DNA from: a bacterium
GTDB taxonomy: Bacteria; Babelota; Babeliae; Babelales; JABDEC01
NCBI GenBank assembly: GCA_947481115.1
Contig: CANKEI010000001.1
Location: 1 to 41,571, forward strand
DNA length: 41,571 bases
Direction: 5' to 3'
Numbering within the stretch: position 1 is the stretch's first letter; every line of letters starts with the position of its first letter. Of the stretch, positions 36,513 through 40,612 are shown piece after piece. The position numbers and the translations under genes are program-made. Under the pieces are notes generated by a model. The model was given only the letters and a program-made list of their open reading frames with translations. It made no database searches and was not told the DNA's origin.

Positions 36513-36974
36513 ATGGCGAAAAAACCAAATTTATTACAAAATGAAGAGCAGATCGTACTATCTTACGAACTATTACAGTTAATGGATTGGCTAATGCAAT
36601 ATGAAGCCGAAGGTCTTAAAAAATTAATTTCTAAAGCTTTTAAACGCGGCTTATCACGTAATTTTAATCGGACAGTTGACAGTCAAAATCTATCTGCACT
36701 TTCATCGGACACCGTGGCTAATTTTATTTCGTTATTAGAACTACTTTTAGTAGAAACGGGCGCTGAACAAGCTAGTCAAAGTTCGCTGAATCGTGACTTG
36801 CTGCCAGAATTGGATCATATTGACTTGTCCAGCTGTCACTACTCCGTAATTCAGTCTAGTGCTGAAATCGCTTTTTCTAAAAAAGAAAAAAATCCCAGCG
36901 AGAACACTCAGGAATTATTATATAAAGAGCTTTTAAAACGCTGGAAACCCCATAAAAAACAACCTGAGAATTAA
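36513..36974 (+). CDS. Hypothetical protein, probably co-transcribed with the hspR-like gene
   Basis: 153-aa ORF with GAGG 6 nt upstream of the ATG. I recognise no motif. Confidence 0.55.
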   Translation: MAKKPNLLQNEEQIVLSYELLQLMDWLMQYEAEGLKKLISKAFKRGLSRNFNRTVDSQNLSALSSDTVANFISLLELLLVETGAEQASQSSLNRDLLPELDHIDLSSCHYSVIQSSAEIAFSKKEKNPSENTQELLYKELLKRWKPHKKQPEN

Positions 36975-36999: not shown

Positions 37000-37272
37000 T
37001 TAACTTTTTAGGCAGCGCCCTGTTTGATCACAGTTATAACCTGGGCAACATTGGCTATAAGACCATCGAGCTGTGTCACATAGTTCACTGCCACCAAGAC
37101 AGCGCCGACAAGTCGAGCTCGCATAGTCGCAGGTAAGATTATTATGAGTATTATTAGTAGTCAGACAGTCATGCGGACTATTACAAGCGGCCGCAACCGG
37201 TAAGGCTAATAATACATTGGGGCAATCAACCATCACTACTAAGCTAAGTAATATTACGTGCATGATTTTCAT
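37000..37272 (-). CDS. Secreted 10-Cys peptide with knottin-like spacing in its C-terminal half
   Basis: Hydrophobic N-terminus MKIMHVILLSLVVMV…LLALPVAAA. The mature part has Cys at positions 30, 36, 48, 55, 58, 65, 75, 76, 81 and 87. The last six run C-x6-C-x9-CC-x4-C-x5-C. Its start lies 1 nt after the stop of the upstream gene. Confidence 0.65.
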   Translation of the reverse strand: MKIMHVILLSLVVMVDCPNVLLALPVAAACNSPHDCLTTNNTHNNLTCDYASSTCRRCLGGSELCDTARWSYSQCCPGYNCDQTGRCLKS

Positions 37273-37273
37273 A

Positions 37274-37750
37274 TTAATGCCCTGCTTTCAAAGGAAGAAC
37301 GGAAAGCACAATATACTGACAGCAGTGCTTGGGCATCATTTCTTGACATAAAATATAAGATAAATCTTTAGCATCAACTGTAGGATCAGAAGTTAGTCCC
37401 TCACAAAAATCACATAATTTTTTAGCATAATGGTTAATGTTTAGCGTAAAATCTGCTTCACTTTCTGAAATCAAAGCTTGTGGATTTACACTACAAGCTG
37501 CAGCTGCATATGAACCATTAGCTAGCTCTGTGTCCCAAATCGTAAAAGAAGTATCAGTCGTAGAAATTGTCGTAGTACCTCCAGACTTAAGATTTTCGAT
37601 TTTTTTGGACGGTAACATGATTAAGTTTATCCGATTGGCTCCTGCCTGGCCGCCAGAAAGATCATTTGCTGTAAAATTAACTGTTACTATCGCAGCTTTA
37701 ATTAAACCTGTAAAATCTAGCAGCATAAAGACTAATAATAATTTTCTCAT
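37274..37750 (-). CDS. Secreted protein with a Ser/Thr-rich, beta-like core and a Cys-rich C-terminus
   Basis: GGGAG lies 7 nt upstream of the ATG. The signal-like N-terminus is MRKLLLVFMLLDFTGLIKA. The C-terminus reads KKLCDFCEG…ILCQEMMPKHCCQY. Confidence 0.6.
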   Translation of the reverse strand: MRKLLLVFMLLDFTGLIKAAIVTVNFTANDLSGGQAGANRINLIMLPSKKIENLKSGGTTTISTTDTSFTIWDTELANGSYAAAACSVNPQALISESEADFTLNINHYAKKLCDFCEGLTSDPTVDAKDLSYILCQEMMPKHCCQYIVLSVLPLKAGH

Positions 37751-37832
37751 AACAACACTCCCACTTGCTTTCTAGTAAAATTATTAATCTTAAACATAAG
37801 TTTTTTATTTCAAACCCTCCAATACTCTACAA

Positions 37833-38315
37833 TTAATCTAACGCTATCAATTGATCCCTGAGATCTGTTAACAGATCTATAAGTCTTTCCCAATATAATT
37901 CCATATCAAGTATTAATTCTTCTCGATCACCAGTCTCAAAGGCTGCTTGAGTCGCTAGAAAAATTAGCTCTAAGTCTTCGATAGCACCTCTTAATTCATC
38001 CACATTGGCATTCAGTACCACCCTGCCAGGCATACCTGCCGGCAATGGCGCATCAAACTGCACTTCCATCGCTTCCAGCACATTCTTAAGATTATGCACT
38101 CGTTGTGCAATACCTGCTAAACTAGCTACATCCAACTCATCTGCCCCATACGCGGCTAACAACTGCGCATAAATACCAGCAAAATCGTGTATTACTGCTA
38201 ATGTGTCAGCTCGCACCACTCGCACTATCCGAATATCAGGATTATGCTGATTTAAAGCACACAATTTCTGAGAGCTAACAAATAGCAGCATTAAACCTAA
38301 TAACAATTTCTTCAC
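37833..38315 (-). CDS. Secreted acidic helical protein, paralogue A of a three-member tandem family
   Basis: GTG start with an AAGGGTAGG SD. Signal peptide MKKLLLGLMLLFVSSQKLCA. Shares blocks with the two upstream genes (HDFAGIY with NNFGRVY; NVDELRGAIEDLELIFLA with SLQQVLNAIAALNQIELILA). Confidence 0.6.
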   Translation of the reverse strand: MKKLLLGLMLLFVSSQKLCALNQHNPDIRIVRVVRADTLAVIHDFAGIYAQLLAAYGADELDVASLAGIAQRVHNLKNVLEAMEVQFDAPLPAGMPGRVVLNANVDELRGAIEDLELIFLATQAAFETGDREELILDMELYWERLIDLLTDLRDQLIALD

Positions 38316-38342
38316 AAACCTACCCTTTAAATTTAATTTAAA

Positions 38343-38921
38343 TCAATCTATAGCGGGTATAGCTAACCCTAACGGCATATCAGGCAACTGGGCATCAATA
38401 GCCATTAAAATTATATTCACCGCTTCTGCTGCTACTTCTTCTATTTCTTGTAAACGGTCTAAATTACCATTAGACACTTCTGCTAAAATTAATTCGATTT
38501 GATTTAGTGCTGCTATTGCATTCAAAACTTGCTGTAAACTAACTTGAATTATTGGCATTAAATCATCACCGTCTTCTGGAGCTAGTTCAGGCTCCGCTGC
38601 TAATCCTTCTTGTAATAGTGCCAGCACACCTTTGATCATGCCCACCTGTTCTATAAGTATCAGCATGTCTTCAGCCGGATATGGCTCAACTGCAAAATCG
38701 TAATCCATTAATTCAGGTAAAGACTCTGTTACCAGCAAATCCCACAGGTCAATTGCACCGTGCATTAAAACATTATTAACTTGCGCTGCTATCAGAACAT
38801 TCGCGTCCACAGCTAAGTTGGGTGCGCCATTTTCTGCTAAAGCCCAAAGATTTTTAGCTCCAACTGCACTTAACAGAACTATGGACCACACCATAAATTT
38901 TTTCATAAACATAATTTTCAT
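38343..38921 (-). CDS. Secreted acidic helical protein, paralogue B
   Basis: GGAGG lies 11 nt upstream of the ATG at 38921. Signal peptide MKIMFMKKFMVWSIVLLSAVGA. The ENGAP motif follows the cleavage region, as in paralogue C. Confidence 0.6.
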   Translation of the reverse strand: MKIMFMKKFMVWSIVLLSAVGAKNLWALAENGAPNLAVDANVLIAAQVNNVLMHGAIDLWDLLVTESLPELMDYDFAVEPYPAEDMLILIEQVGMIKGVLALLQEGLAAEPELAPEDGDDLMPIIQVSLQQVLNAIAALNQIELILAEVSNGNLDRLQEIEEVAAEAVNIILMAIDAQLPDMPLGLAIPAID

Positions 38922-38957
38922 CAAGTTCAAATCCTCCAGTTAATATTATAAATAAAA

Positions 38958-39527
38958 TCAATGACCATGCAGTTGTGGCATAATTACCTCAAATATATGA
39001 TCTATTCTGTGCAACAAACTATTATCATCCCAGACGATATCTAACAAATCGTCATGCTCCAAAATATCTGCATCTAACAAGTTTATCGCAATTAAGTTAT
39101 CAATAGTCTGCAAAATATTATTAGCCGCCCCTACCGCCTGATTTAAAAGCGCCGGATCAAAGTGGATATTCACTAAACCTAACGCCGCTGGCACCGCCAC
39201 TGGCGCTATTAGCTGCACAGCTAAATTATTAGCTAAATCATTAAAAAAATTTCTAACCACTAAAACTCTTGGCCTAATCGCAGCTAATGGTATCACATCT
39301 GCATGCATACCAAATATATTTATGGGCGCTCCGGCAACATTAAAATTAAAAAAATCATATACCCGCCCAAAGTTATTCCTAGCCACGAGTACTTGGGCGC
39401 GGGAAACGGCCAGTACTACATCTAGCACTGGACCATTTTCTTCCATGGCTGAAAGCTCACTGTTATCTAAGACACCTAATGTGCTCAAGCAGAGTATTAA
39501 TCTCAAAACAAACTGCTTCACAGACAT
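38958..39527 (-). CDS. Secreted helical protein, paralogue C; first gene of the cluster
   Basis: Signal peptide MSVKQFVLRLILCLSTLGVL. The ENGP motif and later blocks (LLNQAVGAANNILQTIDNLIAIN) align with paralogue B. Confidence 0.6.
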   Translation of the reverse strand: MSVKQFVLRLILCLSTLGVLDNSELSAMEENGPVLDVVLAVSRAQVLVARNNFGRVYDFFNFNVAGAPINIFGMHADVIPLAAIRPRVLVVRNFFNDLANNLAVQLIAPVAVPAALGLVNIHFDPALLNQAVGAANNILQTIDNLIAINLLDADILEHDDLLDIVWDDNSLLHRIDHIFEVIMPQLHGH

Positions 39528-39589
39528 AACCCCTATTTTAGTCTAAATATATTCTTACTGTAACCTTAGCTTACTAAACCTGATATTCC

Positions 39590-39604
39590 AAAAACAAGAG
39601 TTCT
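39590..39604 (-). promoter_or_regulatory. Copy 3 of the recurrent motif (plus strand AAAAACAAGAGTTCT), upstream of the five-gene secreted operon
   Basis: The exact 12-mer aaaacaagagtt is at 39591-39602, about 62 nt upstream of the ATG at 39527. Confidence 0.4.
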
Positions 39605-39784
39605 ATGTAAAAAATTACTAAATATTAAATATAAACCTGTAGATAACTATAAATCGCGTCTCCTGGCTCTAAGAATCCTGTTTTAACTTGTTTTAGCTAA
39701 CTTTTAGCTGCTTGCTGGGATTACTAAAAAAATATTACTGCTGCTATACTTAAAATATAAAAAATTAAGCTTAGGTGTAATCGC

Positions 39785-40612
39785 TTGAAACTAAAAATCA
39801 TATATCTAATTTTACCCTTAATTTTAACTGGCTGTGTCGGTTTTCCAGAATGGACCAACATGACTTTTTATCAGGCTGACAATATTAATCCAGCCTATTG
39901 GCTTAAATGGCGCCAAAATATTCGTACTACTAGAGTTTACAATGGGTTTAGTACTACTGGGATTTTCGATGTTCTACTGGTCCCTACTAGCACGCCTAAG
40001 CACGGCTATGTTTTTTATGTCTTGGCTTATGCACCATACATGTATGATCAAATGTTATGGACTGATGAGCCACCCAATGTACGCGGCTGGAATATTAGCT
40101 TACAACTTGGCGCAGATTGTTATCGACCTTCAGTATTAACCTCAGTGGCATTACCAGGTAAATATCAGTTAGCTTTTGGAAATAGATTTAATAAGCACAA
40201 GCAAGTTTATCTAGTCGGCTTTGATTTAAAACCCCAAAATTTAATAAATAATAATAATAATAGCACGGGTGACAGTAATAATATTAGCCCCAGCCCAGAC
40301 AACTTAAATAATTTAAATCATAGTCGCTACTTACAGCACAATCAAAGTAGCTGTGCTGCGCCTGAAACGCGCGACAAACTAGCAATTTGCAAACAAGTTG
40401 AACAAGAATTAGTTATTATAGATATGCCAGCCAACTCAGAACTACTTAAAACTGCTAAACTAGCACGCCCAGAACAGCTAATAGTTAGTATTAAACTTAG
40501 ATCACTACAACAAGCTGCTGTCTTACATTGGGCCCCGGGAAATTACCAGCTATGCGATCAAACCAATGATGAATGTGATCCGGCTGAATTTTTATTACGA
40601 GTACGAAAATGA
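39785..40612 (+). CDS. Lipoprotein with an Asn-rich low-complexity insert
   Basis: TTG start with AGGTG 7 nt upstream. The lipobox LILTGC is at residues 12-17. The NNNNNSTGDSNNISPSPDNLNNLN insert includes (AAT)5 at 40247-40261. Its stop overlaps the rpiB start (ATGA). Confidence 0.62.
   Translation: MKLKIIYLILPLILTGCVGFPEWTNMTFYQADNINPAYWLKWRQNIRTTRVYNGFSTTGIFDVLLVPTSTPKHGYVFYVLAYAPYMYDQMLWTDEPPNVRGWNISLQLGADCYRPSVLTSVALPGKYQLAFGNRFNKHKQVYLVGFDLKPQNLINNNNNSTGDSNNISPSPDNLNNLNHSRYLQHNQSSCAAPETRDKLAICKQVEQELVIIDMPANSELLKTAKLARPEQLIVSIKLRSLQQAAVLHWAPGNYQLCDQTNDECDPAEFLLRVRK

Follow-up and report, generated by a model that had tools for sequence, protein, structure and literature searches.

Inhibitor cystine knot (ICK) knottins such as hanatoxin, hainantoxin, ProTx/Tp1a, EETI-II and the sponge asteropsins are made as secreted precursors with a signal peptide and have a framework of six cysteines with characteristic ranges of loop length, a C-terminal β-hairpin and substitutions concentrated in the loops between the cysteines. 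In the knot itself the disulfides pair I–IV, II–V and III–VI, and the third passes through the ring that the other two form. Domains of ~65 residues with ten cysteines and five disulfides occur in the colipase/Dickkopf/Draxin proteins and in SIBD-1, and in an intracellular bacterium the chlamydial protein OmcA is a small (~90-residue precursor), cysteine-rich exported lipoprotein encoded beside another cysteine-containing exported protein. Bacterial sequences are among the knottins in the KNOTTIN database paper, though none with an experimental structure (PMC5753296), so that a bacterial knottin would be unusual, not unprecedented. The Dependentiae are obligate parasites of protists with Sec-dependent, ORFan-rich secretomes, for example that of Chromulinavorax destructans; in a cultured member 44% of the coding sequences (CDS) have a signal peptide, and ORFans are enriched among the secreted proteins, for which host manipulation has been inferred (PMC6561590). 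Here we analyse a 41,571-nucleotide stretch of DNA from a bacterium of the Babelales (positions 1 to 41,571 of contig CANKEI010000001.1, assembly GCA_947481115.1; hereafter the window), which contains a cluster of five minus-strand genes, P1–P5. All five products look exported, and the last gene encodes a ten-cysteine peptide with a knottin-like framework.

We read this cluster, with moderate confidence, as a lineage-restricted, fast-evolving, Sec-exported module for interaction with a protist host that is centred on the knottin-like P5 and has variable helical-bundle partners. The cluster resembles the Dependentiae ORFan secretome in phylum, predicted Sec export, orphan proteins and the proposed role at the host, but that class has been described in bulk, without a cysteine-rich mini-protein cluster or a helical-bundle family (PMC6561590). 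A full-text literature search combining Dependentiae with 'cysteine-rich' returned nothing relevant. The sequence families are new; the kind is familiar, namely secreted, fast-evolving, cysteine-rich effector-like proteins of an intracellular parasite. The Dependentiae are widespread, barely studied protist parasites whose effectors are almost wholly uncharacterised, and P5, with its invariant cysteine scaffold, hypervariable loops and shifting partner genes, would be a concrete and tractable candidate for host interaction.

Cysteine framework and predicted fold of P5

P5 (37000..37272, minus strand) encodes a precursor of 90 residues. The predicted signal peptide comprises residues 1–23 (37204-37272), leaving a mature part of ~67 residues and 7.3 kDa with ten cysteines (15% Cys). 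The precursor itself has 11, the additional Cys17 lying in the signal peptide and not being conserved, so that the ten-cysteine peptide announced in a preliminary description of this locus corresponds to the mature form. In that form the ten cysteines are invariant in six homologues, together with the motifs CNSxHDC and CDY and residues D66, Y72 and G85. The spacing of the last six cysteines, C58-x6-C65-x9-C75C76-x4-C81-x5-C87, is exactly as first reported and is likewise invariant in the six homologues. Between P5 and its counterpart in the near-identical strain L089 (see below), all six of the six replacements fall in loops between C58 and C87 and the cysteines are unchanged.

The fold of P5 was modelled with AlphaFold2 (AF2) from a two-sequence alignment consisting of P5 and its relative P0006. 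The model contains two β-hairpins, at residues 46–57 and 79–89, the latter with strands at 79–81 and 86–89. In Foldseek comparisons the tail (33–34 residues) aligns with many ICK toxins and squash inhibitors at a root-mean-square deviation (r.m.s.d.) of 1.3–2.0 Å and 24–35% identity (E 0.6–3), and the template-modelling (TM) score normalised to the toxin is 0.65–0.75. Disulfide-rich mini-domains dominate the list of matches. For the whole domain the best were Draxin (5z5k_B; E 0.05, probability 0.87, TM 0.35/0.44), SIBD-1 (E 0.2) and Dkk1 (E 1.6–2.8). P5 is like the ten-cysteine domains of this group in size and in its five predicted disulfides, but differs from them in fold detail (TM 0.35–0.52, r.m.s.d. 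4–10 Å) and has no sequence similarity to them; Pfam gave no Dickkopf or colipase match. Dkk CRD2 also has its CC doublet at another place than P5 and a different cysteine spacing.

At the sequence level, P5 has the six-cysteine framework and the loop lengths of the ICK class, whereas membership of a curated ICK family at the Pfam default threshold was not found. The isolated tail matched Toxin_7 with E 0.23 (12.2 bits; cut-off 27), and the P5 homologue of L007 matched Toxin_12 with E 4.7 (8.4 bits; cut-off 21). A profile search of the PDB with P5 gave weak matches at E 1–6 to hainantoxin-3, the asteropsins and ABU8-3, all of them ICK proteins. The P5, P4, P2 and P1 alignments yielded nothing significant in PDB sequence-profile searches, and PDB matches to SIAH1 (E 0.13) were set aside as matches of Cys/His composition. 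P5 thus shares with the ICK knottins the framework, the ranges of loop length, a predicted C-terminal β-hairpin, a precursor with a predicted signal peptide and a concentration of substitutions in the inter-cysteine loops; it differs in being bacterial, in having an additional N-terminal four-cysteine subdomain with the invariant CNSxHDC...CDY, and in the lack of a significant sequence or structure match. The model is compatible with an ICK-type subdomain (residues 58–87; 37012-37101) preceded by this four-cysteine subdomain, and the six C-terminal cysteines probably form a knottin-like fold. The proposal that P5 lies near the ICK consensus stands as far as the framework and the superposition of the tail are concerned, though not as membership by sequence or as a significant structural match; the remark that such knots are rare in bacteria is softened by the bacterial entries of the KNOTTIN database (PMC5753296).

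When the P5 model was compared with models of viral proteins (BFVD), the best matches of the whole domain, over 61 columns, were to cysteine-rich parts of a membrane protein of Pithovirus LCPAC404 (A0A481ZEH7; E 3e-3) and of W8R9N5 of a Chloriridovirus (an iridovirus; E 0.04); both lie below the significance bar. We treat these structural matches to giant viruses as leads only.

P5 has few relatives. An exhaustive phmmer search of 1.84 billion representative proteins returned its own cluster and P0006, that is, a family of two 50%-identity clusters. The 1,270-residue ankyrin-repeat protein P0005, with 11 weak stretches of similarity to P5, was rejected as a repeat/composition artefact. Scans of the JGI metagenomes with the P5 alignment found nothing, and neither did a scan of IMG/VR. 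Because these searches together add only P0006, the family is, as far as sequence searches reach, confined to a narrow clade. Word-indexed homologue searches recovered P5 itself, three close P1 relatives, one P3 relative and no others; for P1 and P3 these searches, which are limited by the word index, gave close relatives only. Pfam, NCBIfam and PHROGs assigned no family to any of the five proteins or to their relatives; the preliminary description likewise could not place P1–P3 in a known family.

Gene content of the slot and the proteins encoded beside P5

The ORF listing and a reading of the reverse strand agree on five consecutive minus-strand ORFs separated by 27, 27, 82 and 1 nt: P1 (38958..39527, 189 residues), P2 (38343..38921, 192 residues from an ATG), P3 (37833..38315, 160 residues, GTG start), P4 (37274..37750, 158 residues) and P5. 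A TTG at 38930 is an alternative start of P2 and would add three codons (195 residues). Purine-rich motifs resembling a Shine–Dalgarno (SD) sequence, read by eye as AGGGG, GGAGG, GGTAGG, GGGAG and CAGGG, stand 3–11 nt 5′ of the five starts. The packed arrangement with an SD for each gene was thus correctly described at the outset. Since the gaps are short and contain no internal terminators, co-transcription of P1–P5 is plausible, and since the genes are conserved in relatives with a ratio of non-synonymous to synonymous rates (ω) below 1, they are real genes under constraint.

Signal peptides were judged by a crude rule and by eye. Each N-terminus combines a basic n-region with a hydrophobic core of 8–14 residues (mean Kyte–Doolittle value 2.2–3.5) and Ala at −1, with predicted cleavage at LSA↓M, LWA↓L, LCA↓L, IKA↓A and LLA↓L in P1–P5, respectively. 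P2–P5 pass the rule; P1 is flagged solely for a Pro-containing hydrophobic 19-mer (residues 103–122), which is not kept in orthologues. By these heuristics all five proteins have the features of type I (Sec/SPase I) signal peptides, including the absence of a lipobox, and the orthologues retain them. All five products therefore look Sec-exported, as the hydrophobic N-termini had suggested from the start. An operon of 'exported proteins only' is nevertheless less striking than it first appeared, because with 44% of CDS carrying signal peptides in a cultured member a run of five exported orphans is characteristic of the phylum, not exceptional (PMC6561590).

Relatives of the cluster were found by tblastn of P1–P5 against 80 YchF neighbourhoods and then on the contigs of the few database homologues, which gave five further versions of the slot (L006/L087, L086, L089, L007 and L088). 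These contain 2–6 genes. P5 is present in every one, P4 and a P1-type helical protein are usual, and P2 and P3 are variably present. In L006/L087 the slot consists of P1 (55% identity), P4 (34%) and P5 (57–60%) and nothing else. In L086 it comprises P1 (71%), P2 (72%), a 92-residue protein, P4 in two ORFs and P5 (62–63%); the 92-residue protein, an unrelated helical one with a signal peptide, stands at the place of P3. L089, from a near-identical strain (DnaK 99.7%), has six genes: P1, P2, P3, an extra gene for a 163-residue protein, P4 and P5. The linkage on which the preliminary description had staked its proposal is therefore kept, P1, P4 and P5 occurring together in L006/L087, L086 and L089. 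The 1-nt junction between P4 and P5 is present in two strains.

The other two versions are more divergent. In L007, where the slot adjoins maf rather than rpiB, a 234-residue signal-peptide protein precedes P5. In L088 (726 bp) the slot holds the 160-residue fusion P0006 (127-609), between the C-terminus of another gene and the 153-residue gene described below. P0006 combines a signal peptide, a helical region of ~70 residues and a P5 domain in one protein. In both versions a signal-peptide-bearing upstream partner thus adjoins P5, and neither partner significantly matches the P1 or P2 families. The L007 protein was accordingly rejected as a member of either, and the helical region of P0006 showed no significant match to the 92-residue protein of L086. 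Several smaller features of these proteins were noted. P0006 has a six-residue deletion between Cys2 and Cys3 and a layout like that of a pre-pro-peptide, and the motif A-(L/A)-P-x3-(G/A)-C that precedes its P5 domain directly follows the signal peptide in the unfused forms. By eye only, a C-terminal '...AQL(P/S)' ending is common to the helical and L007 proteins compared, and the gene before P0006 in L088 ends in a P2-like '...GQLP'.

The 82-nt spacer between P3 and P4 (37751..37832) records the loss of a gene. Positions 37898..37777 of the window align with L089 3790..3911 at 84% identity, into the start of the L089 gene for the 163-residue protein; past this point ~520 nt of L089 are absent from the window, and the alignment resumes at the start of P4. 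The spacer keeps the SD and ~10 degenerate codons of this sixth gene, the ATG having become ATA. In L089 the gene is intact (3880-4371) and its product is 35% identical to P2. The spacer is the deletion scar of a sixth gene, a P2 paralogue. Other damage to the slot was seen in relatives: in L089 a deletion of ~150 nt has removed the SD, start codon and signal peptide of P1 (2074-2502), and in L086 P4 (7068-7538) is split into ORFs of 63 and 78 residues, which may reflect a frameshift, a deletion or misassembly.

More distant Babeliales retain hspR and the 153-residue gene and have no P1–P5 homologue within 10 kb; other small signal-peptide or cysteine-rich ORFs occupy the slot instead. Among these are cysteine-rich signal-peptide ORFs immediately downstream of the 153-residue gene (L012 13906-14760, L015 7688-8469) or 2–3 kb from it (L029 17086-17625, L030 15047-15265), with products of 55–59 residues with 6–7 cysteines or 159–188 residues with 11–13 cysteines and no sequence kinship to P5.

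The mature forms of P1–P3 are acidic, as had been noted (pI 4.0–4.7; P2, at pI 4.05, is very acidic), and free of cysteine. Orthologues of P1 are 51–71% identical (in L006/L087/L086 and the database entries P0002-4), those of P2 72% (L086) and 96% (L089), and the sole orthologue found for P3, P0008/L089, 81–83%. In the best of five AF2 models P1 is an up-down bundle made up of four long helices, accompanied by two short strands; this model has a predicted local distance difference test (pLDDT) score of 73 and a predicted TM score of 0.70, and the five span pLDDT 34–73. Foldseek matched this model to generic helical bundles only, all with E > 1, and an assignment of the fold through the four-helix bundles among them (designed proteins, Borrelia OspC/FbpA and the Tsr sensor domain) was therefore rejected.

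The three acidic proteins had been proposed to be divergent tandem paralogues on the basis of shared motif blocks. The blocks exist, but statistical support is limited to one pair. BLASTP among P1–P3 gave nothing significant. With hhalign, the P1 and P3 profiles align over 122–140 colinear columns (probability 53–65%, E 6e-5 to 1e-4), and the two are reciprocal best non-self matches in hmmsearch among 5,921 ORFs (E 0.002–0.004; 0.026 and 0.0037 with mature regions only). The similarity of P1 to P2 is confined to the signal peptide and the ENG motif, and the P2 and P3 profiles are colinear without significance (E 0.03–0.16). Paralogy of P1 and P3 is thus weakly supported and P3 is a probable distant paralogue of P1, whereas paralogy of P2 with either is unsupported; at the level of sequence, two acidic-protein families are demonstrable, P1/P3 and P2. 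An internal duplication in P1, P2 or P3, suggested by a β-strand-plus-helix unit that the P1 model shows on inspection, was rejected for want of support from half-profile hhalign, in which only the N-terminal halves of P1 and P3 matched significantly (5e-4). Tandem amplification does appear to occur at the locus, because P2 has its 35% identical paralogue; that copy, however, is located in L089 and is absent from the window.

P4 has a Ser/Thr-rich core (18% Ser+Thr) and six cysteines, including a CDFC...C...CC tail, in line with its first description. Its orthologues (34% identity in L006/L087, 74% in L089 and the split form in L086) keep NR(I/V), LPS, DT-F, G-YAAC, LCDFC and CC-(Y/H)-I, so that the conserved cysteine set comprises AAC, C-D-F-C and CC, and the CDFC motif is kept in all P4 homologues. 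The presence of a CxxC motif beside the gene for a ten-cysteine peptide invites the idea that P4 may be a dedicated folding or escort factor. Pfam, NCBIfam and PDB sequence searches gave no thioredoxin-like match for P4, which is thus not recognised as a thioredoxin-fold oxidoreductase.

Evolutionary rates were estimated by the Nei–Gojobori method between the window and L089, where the synonymous divergence (dS) is unsaturated (0.04–0.35). For the flanking genes ω is 0.017 (DnaK), 0.04 (HspR), 0.05 (YchF), 0.09 (RpiB), 0.14 (the lipoprotein) and 0.14 (the 153-residue protein), compared with 0.15 (P1), 0.45 (P2), 0.47 (P3), 0.71 (P5) and 0.82 (P4) in the cluster. P4 is the fastest-evolving of the cluster genes, with 55 non-synonymous and 20 synonymous changes, a non-synonymous divergence (dN) of 0.17 and 74% amino-acid identity between strains that share 99.7% identity in DnaK. 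In comparisons with more distant relatives, for which dS is saturated, dN is 0.15–0.63 in the cluster and 0.02–0.07 in the flanks, with ω of 0.07–0.44. The amino-acid turnover of the cluster genes is 5–30 times that of their neighbours. Diversifying selection in the cluster is suggested at most, as ω exceeds 1 in no gene.

Possible functions of the cluster

In the host-interaction reading, we infer a succession of steps in which the genes are transcribed together, the products are exported, P5 adopts the knot, and the proteins leave the cell and reach targets in the host. The cluster genes would be co-transcribed from the conserved upstream region, and each product would be exported by Sec and its signal peptide cleaved. 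P5 (~65 residues, five predicted disulfides) would be oxidatively folded in the periplasm, possibly with the help of P4, a putatively β-rich protein with a conserved CxxC/CC tail and the usual companion of P5. The set would be completed by acidic proteins, varying in number, of at least two families: P1/P3, for which the model is a helical bundle, and P2. The proteins would then leave the cell or be displayed on its surface and bind targets in the host, and such binding would lead to the diversification of loops and gene content. The carrier, chaperone or immunity roles that had been suggested for the partner proteins are speculation.

Several observations weigh against this reading. The P5 model is of moderate confidence (mean pLDDT 63, with residues 50–90 at 73–83), and Foldseek found no match to it in the PDB at E ≤ 0.001. 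The value of ω is below 1 in every cluster gene, and that of P5 derives from small counts (6.5 non-synonymous and 2.5 synonymous changes against L089). P4 is absent beside P5 in L007 and L088 and is therefore not an obligatory folding factor; this, the lack of a thioredoxin-like match and its position as the fastest-evolving gene weaken the idea that it folds P5. Scans for σ70 consensus promoters and for terminators gave results at or below chance and are uninformative. We know of no characterised route by which such proteins would pass from the periplasm of Dependentiae to the host. Finally, with ~44% of CDS carrying signal peptides in the phylum, the adjacency of exported ORFans could be fortuitous.

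A more specific version of the same proposal would make P5 a two-subdomain bacterial knottin that the bacterium secretes into its protist host, where the peptide would bind to a channel, a receptor or a protease, and that evolves under an arms race; P4 would be its CxxC escort or folding factor, the helical proteins interchangeable carriers or pro-domain-like partners and P0006 the pre-pro-peptide form. We consider it unlikely that all of this holds. If it did, a toxin-precursor logic so far tied to animal venoms would have been invented here in an intracellular bacterium.

The last of the objections leads to the rival that survives best, namely that the slot is a secretome hot spot, permissive to recombination, in which independent exported ORFans accumulate without functional coupling. 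Every relative has its own gene content in the slot, the position after the 153-residue gene is filled in distant Babeliales by unrelated small signal-peptide or cysteine-rich ORFs, signal peptides are abundant in the phylum (PMC6561590), and dS against L089 is uneven along the locus (0.35 in the 153-residue gene, 0.21 in P4 and 0.04 in P5), which suggests recombination. Uncoupled genes are harder to reconcile with the persistence of P1, P4 and P5 side by side, in the same order and on the same strand, across species whose synonymous sites are saturated, with the 1-nt P4–P5 junction in two strains, with the fusion of a helical region to the P5 domain in P0006 and with the short gaps lacking internal terminators. 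On balance we regard the hot spot as a possible but rather doubtful explanation.

P5 and P4 might alternatively be disulfide cross-linked envelope proteins of an extracellular infective stage, by analogy with chlamydial OmcA/OmcB. P5 is like OmcA in size and cysteine density (a 90-residue precursor, 15% Cys when mature), in its predicted export and in its cysteine-containing neighbour P4; the organism is intracellular, and the odd number of cysteines (five) in P4 of L006/L087 would leave one thiol free for an intermolecular bond. OmcA, however, is a lipoprotein, whereas neither P5 nor P4 has a lipobox, and there is no Pfam match to the chlamydial outer-membrane protein families, so that P5 is not OmcA-like by these features. 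The invariant, evenly spaced cysteines and the compact predicted fold of P5 point to intramolecular disulfides. A structural component would also be expected across the Babeliales and to change slowly, in contrast to the narrow distribution of P5 and its high amino-acid turnover. An envelope role is in our view improbable. Highly improbable is an antibacterial one, in which P5, alone or together with P4, would be secreted by Sec as a bacteriocin-like peptide, with the variable acidic helical proteins as its periplasmic immunity proteins: a small disulfide-rich peptide beside variable, fast-evolving, paralogous small acidic proteins does recall the known pattern of arrays of divergent immunity genes, but an obligate intracellular parasite with a reduced genome meets little bacterial competition, Pfam gave no toxin or immunity match (PADLOC was not among the libraries searched), the genes for the helical proteins precede that for the peptide and have far larger products, L006/L087 have one helical gene only and P1 of L089 lacks a signal peptide.

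Under the host-interaction reading P5 would be among very few bacterial knottin-like scaffolds, and as a 7-kDa peptide it would be easy to synthesise, fold and screen. Should P5 be no more than a protein of the envelope or an orphan of the periplasm, the locus would still show cleanly how genes in a secretome hot spot are gained, lost, fused and degraded.

Upstream region and genomic setting

The 257-nt intergenic region upstream of the cluster (39528..39784) is common to the cluster and a divergently transcribed lipoprotein gene and contains long blocks without any change between species that are already saturated at synonymous sites. The motif TTTAGTAA is present there in three copies within 158 nt (39571, 39615 and 39721, minus strand), compared with 12 copies in the whole window, where 4.7 are expected. 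The region has no Rfam match, and RNAalifold gave −3.4 kcal/mol without covariation and no consensus RNA structure, on which grounds a structured RNA or riboswitch was rejected. The conserved blocks, the repeated motif and the absence of Rfam or RNA-structure support argue for control at the DNA level common to the cluster and the lipoprotein gene, and the region is a candidate operator/promoter for either or both. It was also observed that conservation between species is higher in this region than in the coding genes and that the region has a repeated TTACAG.

The window corresponds to a metagenome contig in ENA (ERZ27263733 k141_1747636). Its YchF is 93–94% identical to that of two Babeliales metagenome-assembled genomes and ~60% identical to that of many Dependentiae/TM6 genomes. 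This placement, together with the parasitic lifestyle of the cultured Dependentiae (PMC6561590), shows that the bacterium was rightly guessed to be host-associated. The GC content of the cluster (0.37–0.40) is the same as that of the remaining window, so that horizontal transfer, judged by composition, was rejected; a plasmid origin was also rejected, the dnaK region giving no megablast match.

On one side the cluster is flanked by the divergent lipoprotein gene and rpiB, and on the other by a convergent block consisting of the conserved 153-residue gene (N153), a MerR/HspR-type regulator, ychF and dnaK. The lipoprotein gene (39785-40612, plus strand) has no match in Pfam or NCBIfam. Its longer, TTG-initiated ORF starts MKLKIIYLILPLILTGC and has a lipobox, LTGC, that is kept in L006; the public call (250 residues) starts further downstream, so that the lipobox is lost from it. 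N153 (36513-36974, plus strand) follows the MerR/HspR-type regulator throughout the clade at 88–93% identity; in ~20 loci from more distant Babeliales it lies no further than 10 kb from ychF and is 31–45% identical. It has no match in Pfam or NCBIfam, and a JGI metagenome scan with it returned two distant loci only. Against L089 the dS of N153 is roughly threefold that of the adjacent genes, a possible sign of a recombination breakpoint.

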